Below the pieces are notes generated by a model that made no database searches, was not told the DNA's origin, and saw nothing but the letters and a program-made list of their open reading frames with translations. Below are positions 1 to 31,693 of a DNA stretch of 32,000 bases, piece by piece. Where the stretch lies: positions 870,001 through 902,000 of the forward strand of contig NZ_CP180230.1 of NCBI RefSeq assembly GCF_047555085.1, read 5' to 3'. The DNA comes from Candidatus Saccharimonadota bacterium. GTDB lineage: Archaea; Nanohalarchaeota; Nanosalinia; Nanosalinales; Nanosalinaceae. Made by a program: the position numbers and the translations under genes. The stretch's first letter is position 1, and each line of letters starts with the position of its first letter.

Positions 1-3000
1 AGTGATGTTGACAGCGCCAGGAGAGTAAGAGTTGTTTACTGGAGTTGAAACGTTCAGTTTCATCGATTCAAGTGCGGGGCCTATAGAGTCAGTTTCTTCA
101 AGTATGACCTCTCCATCGTTTCTGGTATTCCCAGCCAGATCTGAGATAGATGATCCTGATTTAAGGCCTGCTGTAAGCTGATCAAGATCTGTCTGTCTGT
201 CGAGACTGACATCTACCGTACAGTTCAAGTTACCGTCACCACATCCTCCGACGGAGAAAACTGCTGAGATATCCTCTTTTATCTCGAAATCGCTGCCGTC
301 GAAGCTGTACTCAATCCCTGCCTCATCATATACATCAAATCTGTAATCAGTAGCACCCAGTTTCCGGGAGTTATTGAGCACAGGCGCGGTATTATCTACA
401 ACGAGAAGATTCTCCGCTGAAGTTGAGGCCTGTCTCTGAACCTTATCACTAACTTCAACCTCAACAGTATAGTTCACGCCTCCAACAAGATTTTCAAGCT
501 GTGTGAACTTCACACCACCATCAGGATTAGATTCTGATTCCGAGATATTTCTCTTTAGACCTACCTGGCCAGAGCTATTCACAAGACGCACTACCGTCCA
601 GTCAGGATTAACTTCCTGATAACTGTAGTTAACAGAAAAGTTCTCTGAACTCTGAAGATAATTTTTAGATACAGGAACATCAATTGAAAGATCTGAAGGC
701 GAGTATCCATCTACTATAACAGCAGAGGCCTCTGAATCATTTCCTTTCTGGCCGATAGTATTCGTAAGATTCAACTCAAGATCATAGGTGCCATTAGACG
801 GCATTTTAGACGATGAAAAAGTTCTGGAGGCCTCTGTATTTTCACCTGAAGTTAGATCACTGAAGATCTGGCTTTGAGATCCTACAGTGATATTCAGCTG
901 ATCAGGATCATCCTCCGTGTAATTGAATAAGACTTCAAGGCTTTCTGTAGGCCTGACATATGCAGGATTTTCTCCCGTTGGCGACTTGATGTCTATCTGT
1001 GGAGGTTGCTTGACTACTTCTACAGCACCAAACTGTTCTGTAGTATTGGAGTTGCTGTTTGAAGATGTATCTGTGGCAGTGGCAGTTGCTGACTGTACGC
1101 CCGATGTCGCTGAGCTTTGTACAGTAGCATTCGTTCCATAAACGTTGCTTTCCAGCGTTCCATCCTGATCCCAGTCGTAGTTAGAAGCCTGTTCAGAAGT
1201 CATTGAGACAGATCCAAGCGAATCACCGAATCCGGAGAGGTTTGTCTCCACAGATGCAACTCCAGTTCCATCAGTCACTTTTGCAGAAACACGTACTTTC
1301 TCTCCTTCCTCCACGACGTCATCACCATCAAAATCTGTAAGGTTCTTCTCTGTTACTTCGGGCGGAACGTGATCCATATTCTGAATTATGACCCACCCCG
1401 AATCCTGAATATTTCCAGCTACATCTCTTATACTTCCTGTTATGCTGAAGTTCAGCTCCTCTGAATCAATCTTGTCTGAAAGAACTACCGTCGCATTCTC
1501 TTCATTCTCTCCTGTAGAAATACTGCTGGAGTTAACAGAGTTAATCTGGCCATAATCAACGCTGAAGGCCTCTGCTGTTATGGTAGAAGGATCAAGGCCT
1601 GTAGTATCATCCAGGAAAGATGCATTGAATGATGTGCTATTCACCTTGAATCCCTGATCAAGCGAGGGAGCTACTGTATCTTTTGTAGGTGTTTTAGATA
1701 CTGTGGAGCCCGTGTTACCTGCCTGATCTGTTGGAGTAACTTCAACTGTTATGGCTCCTTCATCAAGTCCAGAAACATCCAGACTGCCGCTGAATGTTCC
1801 TCCAGAGAACGTGAAAGTATCTGAAACAGTATTTCCGAGATCTGAAACACTGATCTGGACTTCACCGCTGTCATCATTTGTGACTGTGCCGTTTACTTTG
1901 AAATCAAGCTGTTCGCTCGAGTTAACTATGCCGTCCTCAGCAAGCGGCGTGTATATAGAGGCCTCAGGTGCAACAGTATCAACTTTGATCGTCTGTGATG
2001 TTTCATTAAAGCCTCTGTTTCCTGATCTATCTACTGCCTGTACCTTAAGCTTTACTCGGTCTCCATTAATAGTATCGACAGTATAGTTCGTATCCTGCGT
2101 TACAACAGGAGAGGAATACGTAGCACCATCATCTTTTGATATGTACACGTTGTAATAGTCTACTCCAGAAATAGCATCTGAAGCAGCCGTCCAAGTAAAG
2201 TTTGCGTCCTGATCATCATCATATCCTGGCTCAGCAGTTTCATCGTTGTGTGAAAGATCTGAAACATTATCAGGCTTGGTGCCATCGATGAAAACTGATG
2301 AAGATTCATTATCATTTCCTGAAAGGCCGGCAGAATCGTTCATACTGATATTTAGATCATATTCTCCTTCTCCAGGAAGCTCAGAACTGTCCAGAGTTCT
2401 ATTGACATCAACATCAGTTCCTGATGTGAAACTGCTGAAAATTCTTGACTCCGGGCCTACAGTGATATTAACATCCTCAGGATTTTTCTCAGTATAAGTG
2501 AAGTTTATTTCAAGGCTTTCACCCGGCTGCAAGTATCTAGGAGACTGTTTTAACGGATTATCTATTTCCACTTCAGGAGGCGTGTTATCGATCTCCAGAC
2601 TCCCGAATTCAGAAGTTGTGTTGCTGTTAGAAGAGTTGTCCTCTGCTGTAACCCACGAGGAAAGGTCTACACCATCTTCAGCCGACTCTGGCACAGTTAC
2701 ATCGACACCATAAACTTCCTGATCCAGACTCGAATCATCATTCCAGTCCTGAGAGGCAGAGGCTTCCGAAATCATTGTTTCATAACTCAAGCCGAACTCT
2801 GTAAGATTTGAATCTACCTGCGATACCTTGACGCCGTCAGTAACGTTCGCATAAACTCTGAGCGTGTCACCACCAGTAACTATCCCATTGCTATCAGTAA
2901 AGTCCTCAAGATTGAAGGCCTCTATATTTGGCGGAACGCCGTCCATGCTCTTCACAGTAACAGTGTCACTGTCTCTCTGATTACCTGCCATGTCGGAGAC

Positions 3001-5454
3001 GTTGTCTCCTGACTTCAGGCCTGCACGGATAGAGTATATATCAACTTTCGAGTCGAGAGTTGCCGTCACTGTACAGGCCTGATCTTCATCGTTACAGGCG
3101 CCCAGTGCGAAGCTTCCTGAGACTCCAGATGTCTTGAACTCGAAGTCAGAGGCCTGTACAGTCGAGGAGTTCAGACCTATATTATCCGACACTTTGAAAT
3201 CGAACTCCTGAAGATCTACTTTACTGGACTCATTCAGTACAGGCTTTGTATTATCTATAGTCAGCAGGCCTGTCTCAGTGGTTGAGTTAGTGTTTCCTGC
3301 ATCATCCTGTGCAAATAGCGTAATGTCATAGGTTTCTCCCTCTGAAAAATCATGACTCTGATTGTCTAGGTATATATCCTCTGAACTGCTTGGATCCGAA
3401 CTGCTCTCGGAAAAGTTCCTCTCGGCATCAAGATTTCCATCTTGATCAAAGAAACGGAGTTCTGTAAAGAAAGGATTCGTTTCATTATAGCTGTACTCAA
3501 CAGTCAAATTCTCTTCAGAACGGAGGTATACCTGTGACTCAGGAGATATAATCGACATATTGAAAGGCGGAGTAGTATCAACTATGAAGCTTTCAGATAC
3601 AGGATCAGCATCGTTTCCAGCCTGATCCTCCGCTTCTATATCGACTGTTACAGTTCCTTCGCTAAGGCTGTCTGCTCTCTGAGAGAAGTCAAATATAATT
3701 TTATCCTGATTCTGTACAGTAACTCCGTTGGTCTGGCCTACAGTTCCATCGATTACTGTTCCAGTGCTGTCTGTAACGGTTACGTTGGTACTGGTGTTTA
3801 ATCCACTGGTTTCTTCAGTGAAGTTGGCTTCAAATACAGGTTCAGAAGTTGAAACTGTAGAGATGTTTAGCTGTCCGAAAACCGGTTTCACTGTATCCAC
3901 TGTCAGGGATCCGAAAGTATTGGTTGTGCCAGAGTTACCTGCCGAATCATCAGCAGTTATAGTGGTCGTCTTTGAGGCACCGTCGGATGTTGAAGCGCCG
4001 TCTACAGTTGCATTGGTTCCATAGATATCTGATTCCAAAGTTCCGTCGCCATCCCAGTCAAAACTTGCGGAAACTTCATCCGTCATAGATACAGATGAAC
4101 CAGCTCCGAACTCGCTAAGATCTGCTGTAACAGATGTTATATCAGATTCGTCAGTAACATTTGCATAAACTGATACTTTGTCACCGTCTTTCAGGGCGCC
4201 GTTGAAATCAGTCCTGTCAACAAGGTTTTTCTCCGAGATAGATGGAGCTGTTGTATCCGGTTCAGGGCCTTCCAGTCCATACAAACGGCTGTCCCACGAG
4301 GTGAAGTACACCTCATTATCCACTACCGCAGATGAAGAATATGCTATCTCACGGCCTGTTTCATACTCCCAAAGTACATTGAACGTATCAGTATCTACAG
4401 CGTAGAAGTAACCTGAACCTGTAACAAGATCCAACGTACCGACATAAAGCACACCATCTGCTACCGAAGGTGAAGATCTTGCTCCATTAGGAATACTTCC
4501 TGTCACATAGCTACCATCAGTTGCATTGAACTTTGCAATATTACCGCTCGAATCAGTAACATACAGAGAACCATTACTGTAGGCAGGACTGCCTACTACA
4601 CCTCCACCAGGAGTTACAGGACCCCATTCTTTAGTCCCGCTGATAAGATCAAATGCGGAGACCTCACCATCATCAGTAACAACATAAATTGTATTATTAA
4701 CAACTGTAGGAGAATTTCCTCTGGTCGGATTATCAGAACCAGGATCGCTCGTCTGTAAAGTCCAGTTAACATTCCCTGTAGTTCTATTAAGCACAACGAG
4801 ATTATTTGCCTGATCGAAAACAACAACCCTCTCTTCAGTGACAGCAGGCGTAGAAGCAACTGCAACACCAGTACTATATCTCCATACTTCAGAAAGATTC
4901 TCTTGATAGAAAGCGTAAGTATCATTAGTCCCACTGGAAAGAGACACATAACCCATCTCACCTTTCAGAGAAATCGAACTTTTTACATCGCCTCCCAGCT
5001 CACTATTCTGTATACCAAAATCAACAGAACCATTCTCCTTCCAAATCGAGAAAAGGCCTCTATCACCATCGCCATTAAGGGTAGCCGCAAATACCTTGTC
5101 CTGAGTAATAGCAGGCGCCCCCTGAATCTCACCTCCAGTACTGACCCTCCATCTTTCAGAACCGTTATCCCTCCAAACAGCTCCAACATCTCCATAATTA
5201 CTTCCAGAATACACTGTATCCTCGTCAACAACAGGTCCGGAATAAACCGCATTCGCTCCAAAATTAAAAACCCATGAAGTATAATCAGAACTCTTGATAC
5301 CTACACCATCAGAATAACCAGTATTATTGGAATTCTGCTGGAACTGAGGCCAGTCGATAGAAGCTGTTAAACCAGCAAAAACAACGACAAAAACAAGCAA
5401 AAGGCCTAAAGACAAAAACCTGCTAAAAGACTGCTTTTCAGAGAGGCCCAGCAT
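1..5454 (-). CDS. Giant secreted/cell-surface protein. N-terminus is in the window and the C-terminus lies beyond the left edge. Architecture: signal anchor, PQQ/BamB-like beta-propeller, then at least 13 Ig-like beta-sandwich modules
   Basis: Hand translation of the minus strand from the ATG at 5452-5454 stays open to position 1 (5454 nt = 1818 codons). I spot-checked the frame at 1-60, 1141-1200 and about 3700-5454. It is missing from the ORF track because it has no in-window stop. N-terminus MLGLSEKQSFSRFLSLGLLLVFVVVFAGLTASIDW is a signal/anchor. PQQ-like propeller blades include TIYVVTDDGEVSAFDLISGTKEW, GSLYVTDSSGNIAKFNATDGS, GVLYVGT..GYFYAVDTDTFNVLWEYETG and EVYFTSWDSRLYGLEG. After these come repeated 100-125 aa modules ending in [VI]D[NT]T.P-type boundaries (VDTVKP, VDTTPP, IDNTKP, IDNTPP, IDGTKP, VDTVAP, VDNTAP). 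Confidence 0.85.
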   Translation of the reverse strand, partial: MLGLSEKQSFSRFLSLGLLLVFVVVFAGLTASIDWPQFQQNSNNTGYSDGVGIKSSDYTSWVFNFGANAVYSGPVVDEDTVYSGSNYGDVGAVWRDNGSERWRVSTGGEIQGAPAITQDKVFAATLNGDGDRGLFSIWKENGSVDFGIQNSELGGDVKSSISLKGEMGYVSLSSGTNDTYAFYQENLSEVWRYSTGVAVASTPAVTEERVVVFDQANNLVVLNRTTGNVNWTLQTSDPGSDNPTRGNSPTVVNNTIYVVTDDGEVSAFDLISGTKEWGPVTPGGGVVGSPAYSNGSLYVTDSSGNIAKFNATDGSYVTGSIPNGARSSPSVADGVLYVGTLDLVTGSGYFYAVDTDTFNVLWEYETGREIAYSSSAVVDNEVYFTSWDSRLYGLEGPEPDTTAPSISEKNLVDRTDFNGALKDGDKVSVYANVTDESDITSVTADLSEFGAGSSVSMTDEVSASFDWDGDGTLESDIYGTNATVDGASTSDGASKTTTITADDSAGNSGTTNTFGSLTVDTVKPVFGQLNISTVSTSEPVFEANFTEETSGLNTSTNVTVTDSTGTVIDGTVGQTNGVTVQNQDKIIFDFSQRADSLSEGTVTVDIEAEDQAGNDADPVSESFIVDTTPPFNMSIISPESQVYLRSEENLTVEYSYNETNPFFTELRFFDQDGNLDAERNFSESSSDPSSSEDIYLDNQSHDFSEGETYDITLFAQDDAGNTNSTTETGLLTIDNTKPVLNESSKVDLQEFDFKVSDNIGLNSSTVQASDFEFKTSGVSGSFALGACNDEDQACTVTATLDSKVDIYSIRAGLKSGDNVSDMAGNQRDSDTVTVKSMDGVPPNIEAFNLEDFTDSNGIVTGGDTLRVYANVTDGVKVSQVDSNLTEFGLSYETMISEASASQDWNDDSSLDQEVYGVDVTVPESAEDGVDLSSWVTAEDNSSNSNTTSEFGSLEIDNTPPEVEIDNPLKQSPRYLQPGESLEINFTYTEKNPEDVNITVGPESRIFSSFTSGTDVDVNRTLDSSELPGEGEYDLNISMNDSAGLSGNDNESSSVFIDGTKPDNVSDLSHNDETAEPGYDDDQDANFTWTAASDAISGVDYYNVYISKDDGATYSSPVVTQDTNYTVDTINGDRVKLKVQAVDRSGNRGFNETSQTIKVDTVAPEASIYTPLAEDGIVNSSEQLDFKVNGTVTNDDSGEVQISVSDLGNTVSDTFTFSGGTFSGSLDVSGLDEGAITVEVTPTDQAGNTGSTVSKTPTKDTVAPSLDQGFKVNSTSFNASFLDDTTGLDPSTITAEAFSVDYGQINSVNSSSISTGENEENATVVLSDKIDSEELNFSITGSIRDVAGNIQDSGWVIIQNMDHVPPEVTEKNLTDFDGDDVVEEGEKVRVSAKVTDGTGVASVETNLSGFGDSLGSVSMTSEQASNYDWDQDGTLESNVYGTNATVQSSATSGVQSATATATDTSSNSNSNTTEQFGAVEVVKQPPQIDIKSPTGENPAYVRPTESLEVLFNYTEDDPDQLNITVGSQSQIFSDLTSGENTEASRTFSSSKMPSNGTYDLELNLTNTIGQKGNDSEASAVIVDGYSPSDLSIDVPVSKNYLQSSENFSVNYSYQEVNPDWTVVRLVNSSGQVGLKRNISESESNPDGGVKFTQLENLVGGVNYTVEVEVSDKVQRQASTSAENLLVVDNTAPVLNNSRKLGATDYRFDVYDEAGIEYSFDGSDFEIKEDISAVFSVGGCGDGNLNCTVDVSLDRQTDLDQLTAGLKSGSSISDLAGNTRNDGEVILEETDSIGPALESMKLNVSTPVNNSYSPGAVNIT
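90..4260 (-). repeat. Intragenic domain-level repeats inside the giant surface-protein gene
   Basis: Three copies of a ~125-aa module lie at about 1000-1370, 2565-2938 and 3880-4260. Compare ..KVRVSAKVTDGTGVASVETNLSGFG..SEQASNYDWDQDGTLESNVYGTNATV, ..TLRVYANVTDGVKVSQVDSNLTEFG..SEASASQDWNDDSSLDQEVYGVDVTV and ..KVSVYANVTDESDITSVTADLSEFG..DEVSASFDWDGDGTLESDIYGTNATV. Three further ~100-aa modules each occur twice: about 700-1000 vs 2270-2565, about 400-700 vs 3240-3560 (L.V.YSY.E.NP) and about 90-400 vs 2940-3240 (paired Cys, AGLKSG...D.AGN). The copies are divergent at the nucleotide level. Boundaries are approximate. Confidence 0.7.
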
Positions 5455-5582
5455 ACGTTAAATATACTTTTTGCTGGTTTTTATTCTTCAGCCCTGAAAC
5501 GGGAAATAGGACAATTTCAAAGCCATATACAGGCCTTTCAAAGGAACTAAAAGCAAGAAATTAGAAGCAAGTCAAATCGAAT

Positions 5583-6839
5583 CTATTTCATACTTCTGTA
5601 ACGGGCGATGAGAGATTTTCTGTAAACATACATCAGGGCAGCCAGAATCACTGCAATTACAGGAACGGCAACTTCAGATGGCTGAGAGGAGAAAAACCCG
5701 GTCAATCGATTCCTAGGCCTCTCCTGCTGCATGTCATCCTGCGCCTCATCGTTTCCCTCTAACTCATTATCCGTAATATTTTCAGGTTCCTCTCGATCAG
5801 AAGCCTCAGAATCCTGCTCATCACTCCGTTCAGATGTATTCTCCTCTGTTTCACTTGTATCATTTTCTGATTCAGTGGTACTCTCGGAGGCCTGCTGTGG
5901 ATCAAATTCAATCCATCCCGATCCTCCATCGCTGGATTCCGAGCTGGCATCCTCCTCAGGTGCAAAAGCTGCATAAGTCGAGAAGTGAGAGACACTGGCC
6001 TCAACAACATTTGACGCAGTATCTCTGTTTACAACAGTTACGCCATCCTTAGTCCACTCCTGAGAAGTCTCATTGAAGAAGTAGACGCTCATAGAGTCCT
6101 CATCAAGATTATTCTGGTTAATGGTCTGTTGGCTGTAACCTATGGAAACAGTTCCATTAGCCTCGGCATCGTCGCCATTATCATCTTTAACCTCTATACC
6201 AACACCACCTACAAAATTACGGTTTTCAGGCGGTGAAACCGTGGTCTCCTCATACCTTTCAACAGTTACATTCTTACCCGAAGAAGTCTGGACGGAAACC
6301 GAGCTACTTCCTACCTTGACCTCGGCAGAATTGTCAGCACCGACATCACTACTGTTTGTCTCAGCTGCAAATCCGGGATTTGAACGTACATCGAACTCAA
6401 ACTCAAAACTATCAGGACTAATCCTTCGATCAGCTTCAACCTTGATCTCCAGAGAATTCTCTGATTCAGCACTTAAATTCTCATCCTCAGTATCAATACC
6501 GCCAACGTAAATCAAATTACCTTCAGTCAACCTTTTCTTGAAACTGAGATCTCTCACACTCCCCGAATCCTCCAGACTACCGGTCAAATCAAACTCTGCT
6601 CCAAGACTTTCTCCAGTCTCAAAGTTCGTGGACTCATTCTCAACAGTAACTCTGAGGCCGAAAGGAAGATCTCTGTCAGCCTCACTAGTGAAGTTAATGG
6701 TTTGATTAAAGCTTTCCCCACCTGTCAAACTCCTCTCAAAATCTTGTTCAGGACTGTATTCAAAATTCTGAAGCGATTGAGCAGAAACAGCAGTCAACAA
6801 TACCAAAATCAAGAAAGCCAGTAAAATAGTCTTTCTCAT
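5583..6839 (-). CDS. Acidic cell-surface protein with Sec-type signal peptide, PGF-pre-PGF-like beta domain, Ser/Glu/Asp-rich linker and C-terminal transmembrane anchor
   Basis: 418-aa ORF. N-terminus MRKTILLAFLILVLLTAVSAQS is a signal peptide. SVYFFNETSQEWTKDGVTVVNRDTASNVVEASVSHFSTYAAFAPEE resembles the end of archaeal surface-protein pre-anchor domains. An acidic low-complexity linker follows. The C-terminus LTGFFSSQPSEVAVPVIAVILAALMYVYRKSLIARYRSMK is a TM helix plus basic tail. Its ATG (6837-6839) overlaps the upstream gene's TGA (ATGA). Confidence 0.8.
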   Translation of the reverse strand: MRKTILLAFLILVLLTAVSAQSLQNFEYSPEQDFERSLTGGESFNQTINFTSEADRDLPFGLRVTVENESTNFETGESLGAEFDLTGSLEDSGSVRDLSFKKRLTEGNLIYVGGIDTEDENLSAESENSLEIKVEADRRISPDSFEFEFDVRSNPGFAAETNSSDVGADNSAEVKVGSSSVSVQTSSGKNVTVERYEETTVSPPENRNFVGGVGIEVKDDNGDDAEANGTVSIGYSQQTINQNNLDEDSMSVYFFNETSQEWTKDGVTVVNRDTASNVVEASVSHFSTYAAFAPEEDASSESSDGGSGWIEFDPQQASESTTESENDTSETEENTSERSDEQDSEASDREEPENITDNELEGNDEAQDDMQQERPRNRLTGFFSSQPSEVAVPVIAVILAALMYVYRKSLIARYRSMK

Positions 6840-7498: not shown

Positions 7499-7503
7499 AA
7501 AAT

Positions 7504-8843: not shown

Positions 8844-8861
8844 CATCGCCAGAAGTTCTAC

Positions 8862-23455: not shown

Positions 23456-25224
23456 TTCATGTTCACCGCCTGATCGTGGGCCTCTCTGTAGTTTTCACCA
23501 AGTTTGTTCCATGAAGTCAGTTGCGCCAGTTTTCTGGCGTTATGCTTCCTTTCCGTTATCTCCGTCTTCGAATACTCTGTTATATCTGAAATTATATCAG
23601 CAAGTTGATTTGAGGCCTCTTCATAGCTTTTGTCCTCTCTTTCAAGTATTTTGATGCCTTTGCGCTCCTCCTCATCAGTCTTATCCTGTAAAAACTTTCC
23701 GAATCCTGCCATATCTGTTGTTACCGAGAGCGCTCCATTAGCAGCAGTTTCTACAGGCGTGTATCCCCATGGCTCGTAGTAGCTCGGGAAAATTCCTGCT
23801 GAAGAGGCAACTATCGCATCATTGTAGTCCATGGACAGAAGCTTGTCTCCAACGGAAAGATACGTGGGATAGAATATCACTTTGACACGATCATTCTCTG
23901 AGTTGTTCAGGCCTCTCTCACGAAGCCTTGAGATTATCTTGTCATCCGAGTAGTTCAGATCAAACGCACATAGAGGAGGATTCTCGCCTGATCTCGAGTG
24001 GAAGCTGTTAGACAGAGAATCTGCCTTTCCATCATCTACAACCTCTGAAATATCCTCAGGCCTCTCTCCAGAAGTTATTGACTTCAGCAGACGACTCCTT
24101 ATCTCGGGAATAACGGAATCGATGTACTCCTCAAGCTCGTCGAACAGAGACATATTTTCAAGAACACTCATCTTCGCACCTTTAACATCCGAAGGAACGA
24201 AGAAAAAGACGAAGAAATCATCTCCAGGCCTCTCATTAACTTCAGCCAGAGCGTCGACAAGCATATCCAGGCCCTTGTTATGGAACTCGTAACGCCCCGA
24301 CACAAACATTATACGCGGATCATCCTCAAGATCGACGTCGTAATACGGCTCAAAATAGGCCTGAAGAAAGTCAGTCATCTTGGATTTTTTCCTGGTATGA
24401 TTATAGGACAGTTCTTCAAGACTCGGGTACTCCTCAACGTTGAAACCGTTTGAAAGTATCACTTCAGGCCTCTTATCCAGCACTGCCTCTGCCTCTCTCC
24501 CTGTGGTCTTGCTGACAGTTGTGAAAACGTTTGCTTCATGAGCAGCAGCTTTTTCCATCTGGTGCTTCGGTTTAACACCGTATTCTTCCGCCAGTTTATC
24601 TTCTATCTCTCCTTTTTTGATTGCTCCACCTAGATCAAAGTCAGAGTTCGAAAGTGCTCTTCCAAGTACAGTTGCATGCGTTGTGAAAACAGAAGGACTT
24701 TCAAATCCTGTAAGTGCAGCTCCAGAAAGCCATTCATGAAGATGTACTACAGTCTCGCCTTCAAGCTCCTCTTCCAGGCCTTTTACAAGTTTTCCAACGG
24801 CATAACTCCATTTGACAGGTTCATCGAAATCTTCCGGAGCATTGAGAGAGTCAACACCGTATTTTTTCCAAAGTTCGTTCTTTATATCATCTGTAGATTT
24901 TTCGAGGCCTGAAGGATCTACAAGCACTGTTTTAGGTGATCCTGGTACCTTCCATACTCCATAATAGCATTTTATCCCGTGTTTTTCCTCGAGTTGCTGG
25001 AAAAGCTCCTGATACGGATGCTCTTCTCTTGGTGCGAACTCATCTCTGGCGGCTTCCTCTTTGTAAGGGCCTATAGTGAAGTAGTTGTCGCCGTAGAAGT
25101 CTTTCATCTTGCTGGATTTCGATGCCAGAACCTGGTGGATGCCTCCGACCTTGTTCGCAACTTCATAGGAGATTTCGATCAGATTTTCAGGCCTTGACAT
25201 AATACAAGTTAATTGTTCTGACAT
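23452..25224 (-). CDS. Glycogen synthase, GT3 (eukaryote-type glycogen [starch] synthase family)
   Basis: 590-aa ORF. The N-terminal IEISYEVANKVGGIHQVLASK matches the GT3 signature (E.A.EV.NKVGGIYTVL). FTTHATVLGR and PSYYEPWGYTPVE are also present. An alternative ATG at 25200 (MSRPENLIEISYEV) fits the leaderless spacing from a TATA-like element better. Confidence 0.85.
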   Translation of the reverse strand: MSEQLTCIMSRPENLIEISYEVANKVGGIHQVLASKSSKMKDFYGDNYFTIGPYKEEAARDEFAPREEHPYQELFQQLEEKHGIKCYYGVWKVPGSPKTVLVDPSGLEKSTDDIKNELWKKYGVDSLNAPEDFDEPVKWSYAVGKLVKGLEEELEGETVVHLHEWLSGAALTGFESPSVFTTHATVLGRALSNSDFDLGGAIKKGEIEDKLAEEYGVKPKHQMEKAAAHEANVFTTVSKTTGREAEAVLDKRPEVILSNGFNVEEYPSLEELSYNHTRKKSKMTDFLQAYFEPYYDVDLEDDPRIMFVSGRYEFHNKGLDMLVDALAEVNERPGDDFFVFFFVPSDVKGAKMSVLENMSLFDELEEYIDSVIPEIRSRLLKSITSGERPEDISEVVDDGKADSLSNSFHSRSGENPPLCAFDLNYSDDKIISRLRERGLNNSENDRVKVIFYPTYLSVGDKLLSMDYNDAIVASSAGIFPSYYEPWGYTPVETAANGALSVTTDMAGFGKFLQDKTDEEERKGIKILEREDKSYEEASNQLADIISDITEYSKTEITERKHNARKLAQLTSWNKLGENYREAHDQAVNMK

Positions 25225-25234
25225 GTATTAAAAC
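25225..25234 (-). promoter_or_regulatory. Candidate TATA-like element for the GT3-pgi-halfGT-GT operon
   Basis: The minus strand reads GTTTTAATAC, centred about 30 nt upstream of the ATG at 25200. It is a near-identical inverted copy of the element at 25276-25285. Confidence 0.3.
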
Positions 25235-25275
25235 TTCCATACAGGCCTAGTTGCCACCTGCGGGTTAACAGCAAG

Positions 25276-25285
25276 GTTTTATACC
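25276..25285 (+). promoter_or_regulatory. Candidate TATA box for the GDE-tpiA-ADP-kinase operon
   Basis: GTTTTATACC is centred about 28 nt upstream of the ATG at 25309. Confidence 0.35.
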
Positions 25286-25308
25286 GTTAGAAAGAGAATT
25301 CAGGAGTT

Positions 25309-27090
25309 ATGAGATACCATTTAAACCAGGATTTAGACGATAAAAAAGGGATTATATCTAATCTCCACTGCTTCTTCAACCGCCATCTTGACACAGGATT
25401 CAAGACGAAATGGGACGGGCTGTGGATACCACCGTACAAGTTCCTCGACTACTACGCAGTAAAAATAAACGGAGAATGGCTAGGCCCCGAAACTGTAGAA
25501 GCAGTTGACTACGGAGAAAAAATGGTTTTCCACCACGAGACAGACAGCATAAAAGTTAAAGAAACTGTAGAGGCCTCTCCAACAACTCCCGGGATAGATA
25601 TAGAACTCCAGTACGAGAACAAGATGGACAAAAAGAAGGCAGTACATACAGGCCTGGAGCTAGGTGTCGATATCAGGCATAAAGACACAGATACAGATAA
25701 TACAGACTATACAATGGAGAAAGGACCTAACAGGCTTTCTGTGGAGAGAAAAAGTAAGAAACTGATGATTTCAAGCAGCGAAGAGTTTAATGTGAATGGC
25801 GACTCCTATGAGAAAGAGCATTTCCCCGGTGAGAGGCAGAAATGCTTTATTCCCGGTGAAATTTCTTTCCGCTCCGAGCTCGAGGATCGGAACAGTATCT
25901 CTATCGAAGTGTCGACTCCTGACGGAGTTTTCGGACGCATAGATAGTCAGAATCAGGAACTGGAGCATGAAAAGCTTGGGCACGGTTTCAGTTCTGCTCT
26001 TGATAGCCTGAGGAATCTTTGCTACGACAGGGACGGCACAGGGATAATCGCCGGCCATCCCTGGTTCCAGTCTTTCTGGGCGCGGGATAGCTTCTGGTCA
26101 GTACTCGGACTGATAGATGCAGGATACTTTGAGCTGGCGGAGGACATACTGACTAACTTTGCTGACAGAGGCCTTCCTGACAAGATTGTGATTGATGGAG
26201 AGGATCGTGTTGAGCCGAAGCAGTATGATACTGAGCCGCTTTTCATAATGGCTGCTGACAAGCTTGAAAGACATCATCGTACGAACGATGTGATAGATGA
26301 GGCTGTGGCGGAAGCAGCGGAAGACCTGAAGATAGAGAACGATGGAATCGTCCATAATGAGGCCTGTGGAACCTGGATGGATACTATAAGGCGAAAAAAT
26401 GCTGTAGATGTGCAGAGCCTGTGGATAGAAGCTCTTGATGCTCTAAACGATGACAGGAGAGAAAAATTATTTGAAGGCCTGGAAAATTTTACCGAAGAGG
26501 AGTACATGAAAGATAGCATCAACGGAGAAGACACACTGAGCATAAATCCTGCGTTAGCGCTGATGTACGGCCATATAGATGAGGGAAAGGCCCAGAAATA
26601 TCTTGAAACGATCAACGGCGAGTTTGCCTCACGTTACGGGGCAAGAACGCGCTCATGCACAGATCCAGGATACGAGGCCTCCGGCTATCATACAGGCAGT
26701 GTCTGGGGATTGACGACTTGCTGGGCGGCTGCTGCAAACATACGCTACGGGAGGGAAAGGCAGGGAGTCAACTTTATCGAGAAGTTTCTGCAGTTCCTGG
26801 ACACTGATCAGCCAGGAGCATTCCCCGAAAATGTTGATGCCGAGAACGGGAAAATCCTCGGGTGCAGCGAACAGGCCTGGAGCGCAGGACTGATAGTACA
26901 CGTTATAGACACCTATCTGCTGGGCATAAAGGTACGGAAAAACCGTGTGGAGATTCAGCCGCCGGAAAATATTTCCTGTACACGAAGAAATAAACGTATA
27001 AAGGACGAAGAAGTCGATATAAGATTTGAAGACGGAGATGCTGAAATCCTCGATGAAACAGAGCTAGATATTGTGGTGAAAAATGAATAA
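25309..27090 (+). CDS. Amylo-alpha-1,6-glucosidase / glycogen debranching enzyme (GDE C-terminal, six-hairpin glycosidase type)
   Basis: 593-aa ORF. GHPWFQSFWARDSFWSVLGL, TWMDT, GYHTGSVWGLTT and CSEQAWSAG are typical of archaeal GDE-like proteins. Confidence 0.8.
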   Translation: MRYHLNQDLDDKKGIISNLHCFFNRHLDTGFKTKWDGLWIPPYKFLDYYAVKINGEWLGPETVEAVDYGEKMVFHHETDSIKVKETVEASPTTPGIDIELQYENKMDKKKAVHTGLELGVDIRHKDTDTDNTDYTMEKGPNRLSVERKSKKLMISSSEEFNVNGDSYEKEHFPGERQKCFIPGEISFRSELEDRNSISIEVSTPDGVFGRIDSQNQELEHEKLGHGFSSALDSLRNLCYDRDGTGIIAGHPWFQSFWARDSFWSVLGLIDAGYFELAEDILTNFADRGLPDKIVIDGEDRVEPKQYDTEPLFIMAADKLERHHRTNDVIDEAVAEAAEDLKIENDGIVHNEACGTWMDTIRRKNAVDVQSLWIEALDALNDDRREKLFEGLENFTEEEYMKDSINGEDTLSINPALALMYGHIDEGKAQKYLETINGEFASRYGARTRSCTDPGYEASGYHTGSVWGLTTCWAAAANIRYGRERQGVNFIEKFLQFLDTDQPGAFPENVDAENGKILGCSEQAWSAGLIVHVIDTYLLGIKVRKNRVEIQPPENISCTRRNKRIKDEEVDIRFEDGDAEILDETELDIVVKNE

Positions 27091-27736
27091 CAGGATAATA
27101 GTCAATTTCAAGGCCTACAGAAATGCACTGGGAGATAGAAGCGAAGAACTGGTAAAAAGCTTCAGTGAAGTATACAAAGAAATAGATGGAGAGGTCATAG
27201 TTGCTCCCTCTTCCTTTGATACGTTCAGAACTGCGGGTAACGGAATCAAAATCTACAGCCAGCATGTTGGCCCTCTGAAGCCCGGAAGCCATACCGGCCA
27301 CAGTGTTGCAGAGGCGGTAGAGGCCACTGGAGCTTCAGGCAGCTTGATCAATCACTCTGAGAGACGTATGGATAGTGAGAGTATAGAGGATGCTGTTTCA
27401 CGATGTGAGGAGCTTGGATTAGAGACTGTTGTCTGTGCTCAGACTGTTGAAGAAGTTGAGGAGTACAGTTCTTTCAGGCCCGATTTCATCGCTTTTGAGC
27501 CTCCGGAGCTTATCGGCGGCGATACTGCTGTCTCCCAGGCGGAGCCTGAAATGATCAGAGAAGCTGTTGAGAGTACTGCGGATGGAGTTGAGACTTTGAC
27601 AGGGGCAGGAATAAAAAGCGCGGAAGATGTAAGTAAAAGCATAGAGCTTGGATGTTCGGGAGTACTGGTGGCATCCGGCATCGTAAAATCAGATAATCCA
27701 GCGGAGACTCTGGAAAAAATGTGTGAAGGCCTTTGA
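27083..27736 (+). CDS. tpiA: Triosephosphate isomerase, archaeal type
   Basis: 217-aa ORF with motifs VNFKAY, LINHSERR, FEPPELIGG and VLVASG. A GGTGA SD-like motif lies 6-10 nt upstream. It overlaps the GDE 3' end by 8 nt. Confidence 0.9.
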   Translation: MNNRIIVNFKAYRNALGDRSEELVKSFSEVYKEIDGEVIVAPSSFDTFRTAGNGIKIYSQHVGPLKPGSHTGHSVAEAVEATGASGSLINHSERRMDSESIEDAVSRCEELGLETVVCAQTVEEVEEYSSFRPDFIAFEPPELIGGDTAVSQAEPEMIREAVESTADGVETLTGAGIKSAEDVSKSIELGCSGVLVASGIVKSDNPAETLEKMCEGL

Positions 27737-28992
27737 AAGATATCTGGCGGCGACGTTACCTGGAATCGGTTGAATCCGAAAGATCTGAAGCAAATGTCTT
27801 GACAGGTTTTAACGCAAATCTTGATTACATCTACAGATTTGATGATCTCGATATCGATCTTGAATCTGTTGAATCCAGGAAGATCGATCCTGTGAAAAAT
27901 CCAGAGGAGCTCAACTCAGTGCTGAAGTACTGTATAGAGAACAATGAGAACATGGAGGTGCACGGAAAGCACCTGGCCCGGGAGTTCCCTGAAGCGGAGA
28001 AGCGTCTCGGAGGCCAGGGAGGCATAATATCAGATTTTCTCAGCAAGACAGGCAACTACGTTGTCTTCTACACTCCTTTCCTGTCACAGGAGCTGGCAGA
28101 CCTTATTGACTCTGAAGTCGTATACCCTGTAGCTGATGGAGGCCTGAAGCTGAAACGTGTGAAAGATGCTGTAAACACTGATAGAGTCAAAGAAAACATG
28201 ATTGTAGAGTACGATAACGAACACACCGGAAGACTTATTGTCTCGGACAGACTTCAGGGATTCGGACCTTACTTCAGAAAAGGAGTAGAGGAAAAACTGG
28301 ACAAGCTTGACGATGAACTTGATGCAGTCGTTCTATCAGGATTCCACGACGCAGACGGAAACTTCGAGTCAAAGATAGACAAGGCAGAAGTACAGATAAG
28401 CCAGATCAAGAGCCCAAAACACCTCGAATACGTCGACATGGAGGCCTCCAAATCCGAAAAAATCCTGGCGGATCTGGTGCCTGAGTTCGACAGTATAGGC
28501 CTCGATGAATCAGAGGCTCTGGAACTTTCAAGCAGCCTTGGACACAGCTTTGAAGAAAAACTAAGTCTTGGAGAGGCCTTCCAGCTATCTAAAAGCCTCA
28601 TAGAAGATTACAGCCTCGAAAGGATTCATATACACACCTACAGATATCATGTCGCCGTCACTGGAGAAGACTACGGTACGAGGCCTGAGAAAATCCGTGA
28701 ATCAATGCTTTACGCAGAGAACTGTGCTCTCAAGATGTCAGATATAGGAGAGATACCGGACAGCATCGACATGAATAATTACAGTCTTGAAAACAAGCAC
28801 GTTCATATTCTGGATGATCTGGAAGATTTCCAGCATCATCTAGGCCTTGATAACTTTGTGGAAGAAGGTATAGCAGAAATTGATGGATTCAACGTAGTTT
28901 CAATCCCTACACTGATTCATGAGGATCCTGAAAGAGTTGTAGGGATGGGAGATGTAATTTCCTCAGCGGCTTTCACTGCAGAGCTACGCTGA
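27733..28992 (+). CDS. ADP-dependent phosphofructokinase/glucokinase family sugar kinase
   Basis: 419-aa ORF with motifs GFNANLD, GGQGGIISDF and the C-terminal VVGMGDVISSAAF. The only canonical start upstream of the conserved NxNxD motif is the TTG at 27733, which overlaps the tpiA TGA. Confidence 0.85.
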   Translation: MKDIWRRRYLESVESERSEANVLTGFNANLDYIYRFDDLDIDLESVESRKIDPVKNPEELNSVLKYCIENNENMEVHGKHLAREFPEAEKRLGGQGGIISDFLSKTGNYVVFYTPFLSQELADLIDSEVVYPVADGGLKLKRVKDAVNTDRVKENMIVEYDNEHTGRLIVSDRLQGFGPYFRKGVEEKLDKLDDELDAVVLSGFHDADGNFESKIDKAEVQISQIKSPKHLEYVDMEASKSEKILADLVPEFDSIGLDESEALELSSSLGHSFEEKLSLGEAFQLSKSLIEDYSLERIHIHTYRYHVAVTGEDYGTRPEKIRESMLYAENCALKMSDIGEIPDSIDMNNYSLENKHVHILDDLEDFQHHLGLDNFVEEGIAEIDGFNVVSIPTLIHEDPERVVGMGDVISSAAFTAELR

Positions 28993-30318
28993 GGTCTCCT
29001 GTATAAATTTTCTGACATCTGACTCGATTCTCTGGAGGATTTGATCGAGGTCTTCTTCTGTATCGGCCTCACATCTGACGCTCATCTTTGGCTCGGTGCT
29101 TGAAGGCCTTACAAGAGCCCATCCTTTTTCGAAGTGGATCTTCACGCCGTCTTTTCGGGAGATCTCACGATCAGAGTAGGCCTCTCCGATCTTCTGGATT
29201 ACTTTTTCTTTTGCGTCTTCAGGACAGTCGATCCTTAACTCCGGGGATACAGGATAGTCTGTGTAGCTTGAGAGTCTTTCCTCCAGTTTATCTTCGTTAA
29301 GCATCTTCATCATCAGAGCTGCGGCAAAAAGGCCGTCATCCCACGGGAAATCCCATGCCGGGAAGTAGAAATGTCCTGAAAGCTCGCCAGCGAAGACAAC
29401 ACTGGAATCACTGTGGATAGCCTCTGATATAAACGTATGGCCTACACGCGACTCTACAGGCTCTCCTCCTCTCTTAGTAATCATTTCGGATACAAGCTTG
29501 GAGGCCCTCAGATCGTATACCACTTTTCCTTTCTCAATCTCTAAGGCCTCTTCCGAGAAAAGAGCTAGAACTTCATCCTCGGAGATATGACCATATCCAG
29601 GCATCACGAATCCGGCTCTATCGCCATCTCCATCGAATATTATGCCCATATCCTCATCACTCATCTCTTCCTCCAGCGCTTTCCGGGCCTCTTCATTCGT
29701 GGGATCCGGCAGATGATTCGGGAAGGAACCATCAACATCCTCGTTAATCAGAGTTACATCCGATGCCAGGGATTCAAACAGATCCTCGGCAAGGACCCCT
29801 GTAACTCCGTTTCCACAGTTGACAGCTACATCAAGATCCAGAGATCCAAAAATTTCTACAAGCTCCTTGATGTAATCCTCAAGCACATCTAACTCGTTGA
29901 CAGAGGCCTCTCCCTGCTCGAAATCCTCATTCTCGTATATCTCCTGGATCTCAGCCATTCCTCCTTCACGGGACATAGACAGAGCATTTTCCTTGCAGAA
30001 CTTGAAGCCTGTGTACTCCGGCGGATTATGTGAGGCCGTTACGATTACAGAGGCCTCTAAATTATTCTTGTACTGTCCGTACTTTACTACAGGCGTAGGG
30101 ACAACACCTGCAACTAGAGCATCAGTTCCTGTAGAAGTAAGGCCTTCTGTAAAGGCCTCCAAGATTTTTTCCCCGTGTTCTCTGCCGTCTCTCCCGATCA
30201 AAACTTTTTCTGCATCGGTGAATGTTCCGAAGGCCTTGCCTACTTTTTCCGCTTCTTTTTCTCCGATTTCGTCAGGAAAAGTTCCTCTCAGATCGTATGT
30301 GTGGAAGAATGAACTCAT
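28984..30318 (-). CDS. Phosphoglucomutase/phosphomannomutase (alpha-D-phosphohexomutase)
   Basis: 444-aa ORF. VTASHNPPEYTGFKF is the catalytic Ser loop, FDGDGDRAGF is the metal loop and GELSGHFYF is the sugar loop. A GGAG motif lies 8-11 nt upstream of the ATG. Confidence 0.9.
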   Translation of the reverse strand: MSSFFHTYDLRGTFPDEIGEKEAEKVGKAFGTFTDAEKVLIGRDGREHGEKILEAFTEGLTSTGTDALVAGVVPTPVVKYGQYKNNLEASVIVTASHNPPEYTGFKFCKENALSMSREGGMAEIQEIYENEDFEQGEASVNELDVLEDYIKELVEIFGSLDLDVAVNCGNGVTGVLAEDLFESLASDVTLINEDVDGSFPNHLPDPTNEEARKALEEEMSDEDMGIIFDGDGDRAGFVMPGYGHISEDEVLALFSEEALEIEKGKVVYDLRASKLVSEMITKRGGEPVESRVGHTFISEAIHSDSSVVFAGELSGHFYFPAWDFPWDDGLFAAALMMKMLNEDKLEERLSSYTDYPVSPELRIDCPEDAKEKVIQKIGEAYSDREISRKDGVKIHFEKGWALVRPSSTEPKMSVRCEADTEEDLDQILQRIESDVRKFIQETSA

Positions 30319-30321
30319 TTT

Positions 30322-30843
30322 TTATCTCCAGTAGTCTTCAAGTATCTCTGATTTTTCTTTGTACTCTTCCTGCATATCTGGCAGGGATTTCTTCATGACT
30401 TTTGTATCAAGTGAAGTCTCCATGAAGCCTCTATCTTTCTCGTAGATCGGTACTAGCTGTACATGTAGATGCGGAATAGATTCTCCTGCTGCTTTCCCTA
30501 TATTCATGCCAACATCGATTCCAGCGGGCTCGACTACTTCCCTCTGAAGCTCTTCAACTTTCTGCACCATTGCGAACAGACGATTTCTCTCCTCATCCTC
30601 GAGATCCGTCATCGAGTTGACGTGACGCTTCGGCACGACCATGATGTGGCCGGTGTTGTACGGGAAGATATTCAGCTCCACCATAAGGAAATCGTCTTCA
30701 AATATCGCCAGCTTGGAAACTCTTTCATCGTCAGAGGCCTGTGCACAGAAGATACAGTCGATATCATCCGGCACCTCGTTCGCCTCGTACTCTTCACGTT
30801 TCGGACTCCACAGGTACTGTTCGTACGGCTTCAAGTCAGTCAT
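30322..30843 (-). CDS. HIT-superfamily protein, Ap4A-phosphorylase-like architecture with an HxHxQ motif
   Basis: 173-aa ORF with motifs CIFC, LNIFPYNTGHIMVVPKRHV and IPHLHVQLVP. I verified the motif codons at 30457-30471 (cat cta cat gta cag). Confidence 0.8.
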   Translation of the reverse strand: MTDLKPYEQYLWSPKREEYEANEVPDDIDCIFCAQASDDERVSKLAIFEDDFLMVELNIFPYNTGHIMVVPKRHVNSMTDLEDEERNRLFAMVQKVEELQREVVEPAGIDVGMNIGKAAGESIPHLHVQLVPIYEKDRGFMETSLDTKVMKKSLPDMQEEYKEKSEILEDYWR

Positions 30844-30865
30844 AGGAAAACCTTCGGAAAACTAG

Positions 30866-30873
30866 AATTTAAG
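30866..30873 (-). promoter_or_regulatory. Candidate TATA box for the HIT-PGM operon
   Basis: The minus strand reads CTTAAATT, 23-30 nt upstream of the ATG at 30843, with no SD motif. Confidence 0.35.
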
Positions 30874-30922
30874 CCTTACCGCATAAAGGCCTCTAAACGT
30901 CCTGAAACAGAGATTAATACAG

Positions 30923-30928
30923 AAAAAA
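30923..30928 (-). terminator. Oligo-T tract after minD
   Basis: The minus strand reads TAA-AAAAG-TTTTTT immediately after the stop at 30935-30937. Confidence 0.3.
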
Positions 30929-30934
30929 CTTTTT

Positions 30935-31693
30935 TTACAGGCTGAGATCCTCAATCTTGTAACGGATCTTCGTCGAGAGGCCTCTCTGCGGAGGTTCTTC
31001 TCCTTTCACACGGTGAGCCACATCATGGATTGCATGTGAAACTTTTGATTTAGGCTTGTGTGCAACTACAGGCTTCCGGAGTGCAATAGCTTCTCTTACA
31101 TGTTTGTGATCCGGTACCTCTCCAATTATCTTTTCCTGTACAAGTTCCTCGATGTCTTCCTGTTTAACTTCCGATTTCTCTCCGCGTACCTCGTTCAGTA
31201 CGAGGCCCAGAATATCTCTTTCCATCTCTTCCGCCAGCTTCTTCGCTCCAAGAGCGTTCGTCAGTGCCGGAAGCTCTGGCTTCGAGACGAGAAGTACTTC
31301 GTCAGAGGCCTCTACTGCTGCCTCTACTTCCTCTCCTACTCCTGCGGCTGCGTCGATGAATACGTAGTCTTTGTCGCCGAGGAAATCGATCAGTGCGTGT
31401 TTCAGATTCTCCGAGTCGGCGTCGAATTCAAGTATGGATGCCGGTAGAATTGAGACTCCTTCAGGGTGTTTTGCCAGGGCCTGTGTGATGTATGCGTCGC
31501 CTTCCATCACGTCGTTCAGGGAGACGTCCTGGAATCCCATTCCGAAGTGCTGTGCGATATTTGCTCCGGAGAAGTTTCCGTCAATTATTACAACGTCTTC
31601 GCCCTGCTTTGAAAGTGCAACTCCGAGATTGGAGGTCATGGTCGTCTTTCCTACTCCTCCTTTTCCGGAGACTACAGAGATTACCCTGGTCAT
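30935..31693 (-). CDS. minD: MinD/ParA-family P-loop ATPase
   Basis: The deviant Walker A VVSGKGGVGKTT is present. The ORF track extends to 31750, but the ATG at 31693 (MTRVISVVSGKGGVGKT) gives the canonical N-terminus. A TTTTTAAT element (31718-31725) lies 25-32 nt upstream of it. Confidence 0.85.
   Translation of the reverse strand: MTRVISVVSGKGGVGKTTMTSNLGVALSKQGEDVVIIDGNFSGANIAQHFGMGFQDVSLNDVMEGDAYITQALAKHPEGVSILPASILEFDADSENLKHALIDFLGDKDYVFIDAAAGVGEEVEAAVEASDEVLLVSKPELPALTNALGAKKLAEEMERDILGLVLNEVRGEKSEVKQEDIEELVQEKIIGEVPDHKHVREAIALRKPVVAHKPKSKVSHAIHDVAHRVKGEEPPQRGLSTKIRYKIEDLSL

Follow-up and report, generated by a model that had tools for sequence, protein, structure and literature searches.

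Exact protein matches identify the source of the 32-kb window analysed here (contig NZ_CP180230.1, positions 870,001 to 902,000) as Candidatus Nanosalina sp. VS9-1, a nanohaloarchaeon of the DPANN group with a genome of approximately 1 Mb (1,046,238 bp), of which the window represents 3%. The window is densely occupied by one short palindrome, the hexamer AGGCCT. Null models and a comparison with loci from related Nanosalinaceae showed that a directional force acts on this DNA, that it is specific for the hexamer, that it overrides both codon choice and the residues used at tolerant protein positions, and that it is switched on in some lineages. By analogy with the highly iterated palindromes (HIPs) of cyanobacteria, we propose, with about even chances of being right, that AGGCCT is an archaeal HIP produced by a mobile DNA-recognition system, with a StuI-type methyltransferase as its most plausible core. 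An earlier reading of the same DNA, made from the letters only and called here the sequence-only reading, had supposed that the source was a host-dependent symbiont. This was borne out by the identity of the organism, a nanohaloarchaeon and ectosymbiont of haloarchaea.

AGGCCT is enriched in all codon phases and in intergenic DNA

Exact counting identified 126 copies of AGGCCT, the first at position 164 and the last at 31306, against 6.4 expected from base composition at a GC content of 45.7% (observed/expected ratio (O/E), 19.6). It was the most frequent of all hexamers in the window, the next palindromic hexamer reaching an O/E of only 2.8, and 2.4% of the bases fell within a copy. The sequence-only reading had estimated about 125 copies, 107 of them from 8754 onward in 22.6 kb, with about 6 expected and an excess of about 20-fold. 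These figures agreed with the exact counts; its guess of 44% for the GC content was too low. The array consists of two domains:

164..31311, whole array, 126 copies of AGGCCT (exact counting with Markov and codon-shuffle null models)
164..8437, sparse domain, 19 copies (2.2 per kb), giant surface-protein gene and three poorly conserved open reading frames (ORFs)
8754..31311, dense domain of 22.6 kb, 107 copies (4.7 per kb), conserved housekeeping and glycogen-metabolism genes and their spacers

Individual genes of the dense domain carried 2-8 copies per kb, and the sparse domain included a stretch of 2,544 bp, from 5888 to 8432, without the motif.

Markov simulations predicted 6.3 copies at order 0, 7.2 at order 1, 21.8 at order 2 and 56±8 at order 3. 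Gene-level counts were made on 26 ORFs delimited in the window. These contained 115 copies, compared with 14.6±3.3 (maximum of 25 in 300 runs) after a synonymous-codon shuffle, which preserves both the protein sequence and codon usage, and 7.9±2.7 after a shuffle of codon order. A by-product of base composition, codon usage or halophilic amino-acid usage, or an assembly artefact, is refuted as the source of the motif. Its one point of support is that an order-4 Markov model reproduces the count (122 expected, close to the 126 observed), but this model was trained on the 5-mers of the motif itself; it was discarded as a null because these 5-mers are dominated by AGGCCT and make it uninformative. 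Orders 0-3 and both codon shuffles remained far below the observed count, failing by 2-20 fold. Relatives that match the window in GC content, habitat and proteome type are without the motif, and it is present in independent assemblies from NCBI, JGI and ENA.

Copies were found in genes of both strands. Codon phases 0, 1 and 2 held 22, 52 and 41 copies, encoding RP, [EQK]A[SFCYW..] and xGL, respectively, as illustrated by three sites in the Hel308 helicase gene:

9759..9764, plus strand, phase 0, AGG-CCT encoding Arg-Pro
9592..9597, plus strand, phase 1, G-AGGCCT-CA encoding Glu-Ala-Ser
9140..9145, plus strand, phase 2, GA-AGGCCT-C encoding Glu-Gly-Leu

Intergenic DNA contained 11 copies in 1,881 nt, corresponding to 5.8 per kb versus 3.8 per kb in coding DNA:

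5531..5536, intergenic
8754..8759, divergent spacer upstream of the Hel308 gene, within the 12-mer CAGAGGCCTCTG at 8751-8762
8766..8771, intergenic, 12 bp past the preceding copy and one of the two gaps below 30 bp in the dense domain
13387..13392, spacer between the aldolase and peroxiredoxin genes
13523..13528, intergenic
16067..16072, intergenic, in a 37-bp spacer
18296..18301, intergenic
18382..18387, intergenic
18593..18598, intergenic
25243..25248, intergenic
30887..30892, intergenic

The sequence-only reading had already reported the motif in all three codon phases (with the three Hel308 examples), on both strands and at eight intergenic sites, and each of these sites was recovered in its reported place or phase. 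The AGGCCT signal acts at the DNA level and is not a protein-level artefact.

A signal read in RNA, in which AGGCCU in every transcript across a site would be the target of an RNA-binding protein or ribonuclease, can hardly be the cause. Most of the window is transcribed, and strand symmetry alone cannot exclude such a signal, but the density is highest in intergenic spacers, divergent promoter regions included, and a scan of the window against Rfam gave no match. Neither codon phase nor orientation showed a bias related to translation, and the interference between sites over tens of base pairs that is described below is not an obvious property of RNA.

Other short palindromes are strongly depleted in the window as a whole, with O/E values of 0.26 for CTAG, 0.19 for CGCG, 0.31 for GCGC and 0.38 for TTAA; GCGCGC, CGCGCG, GCTAGC, TGCGCA and GGGCCC have zero copies. 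GATC is mildly enriched (O/E 1.6).

The enrichment recurs in a subset of related lineages

The window was compared with loci from relatives, each represented by 1.4-21 kb of sequence syntenic with the window; the ORF sets of metagenomic loci are longest-ORF proxies. The enrichment was not confined to the window and recurred in Nanohaloarchaea archaeon SG9 (Ca. Nanopetramus) and in other, metagenomic Nanosalinaceae. Motif-rich loci carried, per kb, 3.9 copies (window), 4.0 (SG9), 4.9 (L021; O/E 28), 3.1 (L019), 2.6 (L029), 7.0 (L028) and 3.5 (L018). Intermediate densities were found in L017 (1.1), L023 and L024 (0.6-0.8), L002 (0.8) and L006 (1.0). The remaining loci were at background (motif-poor), with 0.1-0.4 copies per kb in L008-L016, which are the closest relatives found (by highest protein identity in genes shared with another relative), and approximately 0-0.35 in L001, L003, L005, L007, L020, L022, L025-L027 and L030.

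Sites arise by point substitution, through codon choice and amino-acid replacement

Codon alignments, in which sites replace ordinary sequence in place, showed that they arise by point substitution and not by insertion. Of the peptide contexts able to encode the motif synonymously, 65-90% were found to use it. In the window, AGGCCT was used in 22/26 RP, 51/68 [KQE]A[FLSYCW] and 41/63 xGL contexts, and in SG9 in 8/8, 21/29 and 20/29, respectively; the corresponding values in the motif-poor L008 were 0/5, 3/14 and 2/20. Overall, saturation of compatible contexts reached 0.67-0.91 in rich loci, compared with 0.19-0.50 in intermediate loci and 0-0.17 in poor ones. The sparse domain had a synonymous saturation (RP 2/2, xAx 9/14, xGL 7/14) similar to that of the rest of the window, so that the halved density in the 1-8.7 kb region appears to come mainly from fewer compatible peptides.

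Codon choice does not account for all sites: many of those in the window are non-synonymous relative to the poor relatives. Replacements at tolerant residues that make a site include DYL to EGL, DEE to EAS, SA to RP, EKY to EAF and EVE to EAS. The frequency of [KQE]A[FSYCW] was 5.9 per 1000 residues in the window versus 1.4-2.0 in poor relatives, and motif-encodable peptides as a whole were 2-4 times commoner in rich genomes than in poor relatives, in line with the earlier remark that the motif shapes the proteome through RP, EAS/EAF and GL peptides. The following sites, compared across the alignments, are representative:

9188..9193, plus strand, Hel308, site made by replacement (column 326): EGL here, KGL with AGGCCT in SG9, DYL (CTAYCT) in four motif-poor relatives
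16354..16359, plus strand, GAPDH: site also in SG9, L021 and L018; EGI, EDL or EAL in motif-poor relatives
16611..16616, plus strand, GAPDH, E-A-F (column 526): AGGCCT also in SG9, L021, L019 and L029; E-[E/R/S/N/K]-F in motif-poor relatives
16863..16868, plus strand, GAPDH, conserved [EQ]AF (column 781): six motif-rich loci have AGGCCT; motif-poor loci use other codons for this peptide
17115..17120, plus strand, GAPDH, EAS: site common to SG9; [DEGN]TS in relatives

As judged from the alignment, separate lineages have converged on the GAPDH site at 16611..16616, where a tolerant residue is flanked by conserved ones.

Only 4% of window sites were also AGGCCT in L008 and 7% in L001. The sites are taken to be derived because this sharing lies below the identity of the average hexamer (11-14%). 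Rich genomes shared 31-52% of their sites against a baseline of 10-16%, an excess that, at 70-90% saturation, convergence explains as well as conservation does. For window sites, the share found in other rich lineages was 32-44%, reaching 44% against a baseline of 10% for L021, which belongs to a separate clade. The same tolerant codon positions were converted in separate lineages, and convergence on few such positions is expected because compatible contexts are near saturation.

Rich and poor lineages are interleaved in the tree

Relationships were examined in a distance-based neighbour-joining tree of 7 genes (1,889 residues), with motif codons kept or masked. The window, L016 and SG9 formed a clade with 100% bootstrap support, and so did L021, L019 and L017 (clade B), L001 and L020 falling outside both. 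Rich, intermediate and poor lineages were interleaved. The grouping of the window and SG9 as exclusive sisters, corresponding to a single origin, received a bootstrap of only 1-4% and was rejected; all trees were distance-based and drew on at most seven genes. On this tree, the AGGCCT-rich state is one that has been gained or lost several times in the Nanosalinaceae, because rich lineages fall into two or more clades, all of which also include poor or intermediate lineages.

Motif-compatible peptide contexts provided an indication of direction. Their frequency was 10-21 per 1000 residues in rich loci and 5.3-10.0 in poor loci (mostly 5-8; 10.0 in L007). L008 and L016, with 5.3-5.5, were lowest among the poor relatives and showed no protein-level 'fossil' of a former motif-rich state. 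Judged from these sequences, a gain in the window lineage after its split from L008/L016 is favoured, because at 23-26% protein divergence most such peptides would be expected to outlast a recent loss. In intermediate lineages, slightly raised contexts combined with low saturation hint at decay, on small numbers.

Flanks follow codons and variants concentrate at the outer bases

The commonest octamer in the window was GAGGCCTC (25 copies), and AGGCCTCT occurred 34 times, corresponding to 27% of AGGCCT sites. The perfect 12-mer CAGAGGCCTCTG was present at 8751-8762 and at a second position:

723..734, 12-mer in the giant surface-protein gene

Octamer counts corresponded to the product of independent half-site preferences. 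SG9 favours AAGGCCTT and the window GAGGCCTC, a difference that follows Lys versus Glu codons; flank preferences are due to codons (GAG encodes Glu, and TAG is avoided). A palindrome of 8-12 bp as the true unit was therefore rejected, the flanks being independent and a by-product of coding. Of what the sequence-only reading said about flanks, the octamer, the share of about a quarter for AGGCCTCT and the positions of the 12-mer stood, whereas the idea that the flanks extend the recognition palindrome did not. Its impression that most GGCC tetramers lie inside the hexamer or its GGGCCT/AGGCCC variant was correct, the count being 164/204 (80%).

The spectrum of one-off variants was determined by comparing pooled rich loci (110 kb, 426 AGGCCT) with poor loci (100 kb, 19 AGGCCT). 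Among outer-position variants, GGGCCT/AGGCCC was enriched 4.0x (p=1e-8) and TGGCCT/AGGCCA 1.8x, with no others enriched. Inner-position variants were all at 0.83-1.17x; the products of C to T change were not depleted (AGGTCT/AGACCT 0.83x, p=0.35; AGGCTT/AAGCCT 0.91x, p=0.62). GGCC outside the hexamer reached approximately 1.3x, and GGGCCC was absent. Because only outer-position variants are enriched, this spectrum suggests a reader that requires the GGCC core and at least one perfect half-site.

Neighbouring sites interfere at short range

Sites were spaced more evenly than expected by chance. In the dense domain the coefficient of variation (CV) of spacing was 0.75 versus 0.98 for random placement (P=0.0012), with 2 gaps below 30 bp versus 13.9 expected. 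Pooling five rich loci, 9 gaps below 30 bp were observed where 45.6 were expected, 27 versus 72.8 below 50 bp and 47 versus 103.7 below 75 bp. The CV was 0.65-0.87 in four of these five loci and 1.87 in L029, which has 33 gaps only; control hexamers gave values mostly near 1 (0.92-1.45). Pair correlation was 0.15x below 20 bp and about 0.5x at 40-60 bp, and was flat past approximately 120 bp. No periodicity in site spacing, helical or other, rose above the shuffled control.

With the proteins held fixed, compatible contexts used AGGCCT in 44/84 cases (52%) when another site lay within 50 bp and in 282/358 (79%) when none did (odds ratio 0.30, Fisher p=3e-6). Site creation is self-limiting: compatible positions are much less used within about 50-75 bp of a copy, so that the density levels off at about one site per 200 bp, whether the DNA is coding or not. 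The fall in context use near an existing site argues against a bias that acts independently on each near-match.

This result bears on site-autonomous mutation or repair bias, of which very-short-patch hypercorrection at a methylated GGCC, put forward by the sequence-only reading, is an example. There is no 'halo' of inner-core transition variants around AGGCCT, as could be the case if T:G mismatches in the core were corrected, and pairs of Vsr and methyltransferase exist in archaea. Like the CCWGG/CTWGG skew produced by Dcm/Vsr in enterobacteria, such a process would shift a methylated short palindrome by a sequence-specific repair bias. In that system, however, the T-containing neighbour is depleted and the effect is small, whereas AGGCCT is enriched 20-fold with no neighbour depleted: the deamination products mentioned above, at 0.83x and 0.91x, did not differ significantly between rich and poor loci. 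The classic Dcm/Vsr effect is below 2-fold. GGCC outside the hexamer was barely enriched (about 1.3x), the known StuI-type modification is N4-methylcytosine (m4C), which yields no T:G mismatch, and a site-autonomous process cannot explain why context use falls from 79% to 52% when a neighbour lies within 50 bp. The hypercorrection proposal is disfavoured on these counts, and site-autonomous bias of any kind is highly unlikely.

Even spacing could also reflect an array of binding sites, in which an abundant dimeric protein of chromatin, the nucleoid or replication would bind AGGCCT as its operator, with about one site per 200 bp and a steric footprint of approximately 50-75 bp. A palindromic hexamer suits a dimeric binder, and so do the soft repulsion below 75-100 bp, the more even than random spacing and the enrichment of the variants with one half-site, AGGCCC/GGGCCT, but not of GGGCCC. 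The intergenic density is similar or higher, and a role in chromosome structure has been argued for the cyanobacterial HIP1 (Xu et al. 2018, PMC5861425). Such an array would, however, need thousands of near-neutral sites to be fixed by selection, many at the cost of amino-acid changes, and the same specificity would have to appear in separated lineages and be absent from the closest relatives, which is improbable for a core chromatin protein that is not mobile. Neither periodicity nor a candidate protein was found. We consider this explanation possible, though unlikely.

Relation to known iterated motifs

HIPs have been known for about 30 years, almost exclusively from cyanobacteria, and opinions on what causes them still differ; methylation-linked repair, chromosome structure and DNA uptake are the candidate mechanisms. 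AGGCCT resembles HIP1 (GCGATCGC) and the alternate HIPs in being a short GC-rich palindrome with an O/E in the range of about 15-300 (PMC4390886; PMC5861425), present in all frames and in non-coding DNA, patchy among lineages and non-random along the chromosome. As with HIP1, one-off variants are concentrated at the outermost bases (Elhai 2015, PMC4390886). HIP sites are shared between genomes above background; for AGGCCT, sharing above baseline may reflect convergence as well as conservation. By those defining features of HIPs that were tested, AGGCCT is a top oligomer with an O/E of at least 15, codon-independent, sporadically distributed and surrounded by outer-position variants. In cyanobacteria, each of the alternate HIPs is accompanied by a cognate methyltransferase, among them GGCGCC in Calothrix PCC 7103, which has an O/E of about 15-20 (PMC4390886).

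AGGCCT differs from HIPs in its host, a DPANN symbiont of the Archaea with a 1-Mb genome, and in the hexamer itself. Its density of 3-5 per kb exceeds the 0.5-2.5 per kb of a typical HIP, its synonymous contexts are near-saturated, and it measurably rewrites the proteome. The repulsion below 75 bp also contrasts with the periodicity of 10-90 kb reported for HIP1. Full-text literature searches, which covered the SG9 genome paper, turned up no description of AGGCCT or GGCC as enriched in nanohaloarchaea or in archaea at large. Two nanohaloarchaeal methylome papers describe the motif GDGCHC in a different genus, and an archaeal survey of restriction-modification (R-M) systems, which does not cover SG9, contained nothing on AGGCCT enrichment. 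An archaeal element of the HIP kind, present at more than the usual HIP1 density and subject to a short-range spacing rule, is apparently undescribed.

AGGCCT also shares properties with the uptake signal sequences (USS) of Pasteurellaceae and the DNA uptake sequences (DUS) of Neisseriaceae, which are iterated genome-wide and occur in genes at tolerant positions (Findlay & Redfield 2009, PMC2817400). As in those systems, encodable peptides are at least doubled, copies are scarce in genes without homologues, and the pattern is explicable by molecular drive. The resemblance to uptake sequences noted in the sequence-only reading thus holds for peptide enrichment, for the lower density in the surface-protein region and for even spacing.

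An uptake or recombination drive would import or recombine AGGCCT-bearing fragments preferentially, so that the motif accumulates without a benefit of each site. The occurrence in all frames of coding DNA, the encodable peptides raised at least 2-fold, the use of tolerant residues and the lower number of copies in poorly conserved genes all fit such a drive. So does the over-dispersed spacing, and even spacing has also been described for the USS of Haemophilus. Recent work links HIP1 to transformation; nanohaloarchaea have been proposed to import host DNA via giant SPEARE proteins, and pilus-like genes are present. USS and DUS are, however, asymmetric sequences of 9-12 nt present about once per kb, with a demonstrated uptake bias in competent bacteria; AGGCCT is a perfect 6-bp palindrome at 3-5 per kb, and neither competence nor such a bias is known for nanohaloarchaea. 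A palindrome of 6 bp discriminates little, given about one copy per 3 kb in host DNA of 65% GC (estimated from composition), and interference below 75 bp is far under the scale of recombination tracts or imported fragments. We regard an uptake drive as distinctly unlikely.

A mobile DNA-recognition system as the candidate cause

The presence of the same hexamer in separated lineages that share core genes and gene order points to a horizontally transferable, sequence-specific DNA-recognition system. The best candidate would be a module for AGGCCT methylation of StuI type, acting on N4 of cytosine, as the cyanobacterial HIPs suggest by analogy. Once present, such a module would favour the fixation of some alleles over others, either through methyl-marked strand choice in repair or recombination or through selection for one marked site per neighbourhood, continuing until coverage saturates. 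In archaea, methyltransferases and R-M systems typically have a patchy distribution and spread by horizontal transfer. In the ratchet proposed by Elhai, the process halts once every nucleotide is within range of a marked site (PMC4390886), which predicts saturation and even spacing. AGGCCT-specific cytosine methyltransferases exist, as shown by Alcanivorax borkumensis SK2, in which AgGCcT is methylated on both strands (PMC12128166), and m4C methylation specific for AGGCCT is known from bacteria. The A. borkumensis genome holds 1,674 copies, or about 0.5 per kb (PMC12128166). Targets of R-M systems are normally avoided, the opposite of the O/E of 19.6 observed here. For A. borkumensis, assuming a genome of about 3.1 Mb and a GC content of about 55%, AGGCCT is present at an estimated 2x its expectation.

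Several observations weigh against a mobile methyltransferase-centred system. No methyltransferase, Vsr-like gene or other candidate was found in the window and approximately 270 kb of related loci; regular expressions for C5 and N6/N4 DNA methyltransferase motifs returned none from the window ORFs or the 31 loci. Because no candidate gene lies in these sequences, the link to a methyltransferase is pure analogy. Orphan methyltransferases alone do not enrich their sites, CTAG being methylated yet depleted in haloarchaea, and the G-mC mismatch-repair detail of Elhai's ratchet does not explain the A/T outer bases. Four-fold-site divergence was flat at 0.35-0.45 near AGGCCT and not lowered, as protection by repair predicts, although four-fold sites are near saturation, so this is a weak test. 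Given the short loci, multiple losses from a motif-rich ancestor are still formally compatible with the data, and the figure of about 4,100 AGGCCT for the whole VS9-1 genome is an extrapolation from the 3% covered by the window.

Some ORFs were restricted to motif-rich loci; besides unknown proteins, their products are a KaiC-like ATPase, an APH kinase, a PKD protein and a reverse transcriptase. None was common to all rich loci and none was plausible as the determinant, and they were rejected. Viral contigs of IMG/VR were also rejected: among the matches listed, the rich ones (L123, L147 and L129) consist of tandem or collagen-like repeats unrelated to nanohaloarchaea.

A more speculative extension, which we consider doubtful at best, is that a mobile DNA-marking system repeatedly invades nanohaloarchaea and evenly tags the genome, the approximately 4,000 tags forming a dense 'self' label that would spare the cell's own DNA from SPEARE nuclease proteins. 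If so, an ectosymbiont that imports and degrades host DNA could spare, repair or recombine only its own chromosome, and density-based discrimination of self from non-self would be new in Archaea. The cost would be the approximately 2.4% of bases in the motif and convergent amino-acid replacement in each lineage.

Whatever its cause, the AGGCCT system provides a new test bed for HIPs, with a stronger effect (up to 5 sites per kb and 70-90% of compatible codon contexts occupied), in a different domain of life and in genomes of about 1 Mb. Complete genomes for VS9-1 and SG9 (CP012986.1) and the existence of co-cultured species in the group are favourable, and a trait that switches on and off between lineages sharing gene order is suited to phyletic-pattern analysis. 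The convergent protein changes and the short-range interference set quantitative constraints on any mechanism. A DNA-level force can visibly reshape the proteins of a reduced symbiont genome, and in DPANN archaea, phylogenies, codon models and metagenome binning can all be biased by motifs of this kind.

Neighbouring genes and minor observations

The gene content of the window is archaeal and comprises Hel308 helicase, class I aldolase, FBPase and archaeal-type GAPDH, together with GH57, glycogen synthase, debranching enzyme, ADP-dependent kinase, PGM and a giant surface protein. The gene for the latter (1-5457, minus strand) is cut by the window edge, leaving the N-terminal part (more than 1,819 residues), with PQQ/beta-propeller and Ig-like domains and AGGCCT at 2.75 per kb. 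It aligns with its L006 homologue at several offsets, a sign of internal repeats, and the protein resembles the giant proteins described for nanohaloarchaea. It is followed by three minus-strand ORFs (5583-8526), of which two lack a Pfam match and the third has a lamin-tail domain. The three ORFs hold 3 AGGCCT in all (0-1.6 copies per kb) and include the motif-free stretch of 2.5 kb; they possibly represent a recently acquired or fast-evolving cell-surface cassette.

The reverse transcriptase found among motif-rich loci (L029:5214-6314, minus strand) is a protein of 367 residues with an RVT_1 domain and has a homologue in L019, both being clade B contigs. The small ORFs around it are common to these two loci only, and it may belong to a diversity-generating retroelement or a retron. 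Among the viral repeat contigs, L123 (IMGVR_UViG_2595698529_000001, 6700-8430) has a 73-bp unit with paired AGGCCTAGGCCT adjoining TTAGGG telomere-like repeats, and L147 (5176-5396) has a 20-bp repeat unit downstream of a terminase gene.

The SG9 Hel308 gene (L004:7424-11254) contains an in-frame intein of about 500 residues with a LAGLIDADG homing endonuclease (Pfam Intein_splicing and LAGLIDADG_3, residues 355-859). The intein DNA carries 3 AGGCCT in 1.5 kb, about half the average of the locus; the window Hel308 gene (8862-11135) is without an intein. An ORF of 122 residues downstream of it (11136-11504, minus strand) has 3 AGGCCT (8 per kb), no Pfam match and no homologue in related loci, and may be a non-coding spacer rather than a gene. 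A further ORF of 90 residues (13272-13541, minus strand), in the spacer between the aldolase and peroxiredoxin genes, has a translated match only in the motif-rich L029 and may represent a conserved element, either a small gene or non-coding DNA.

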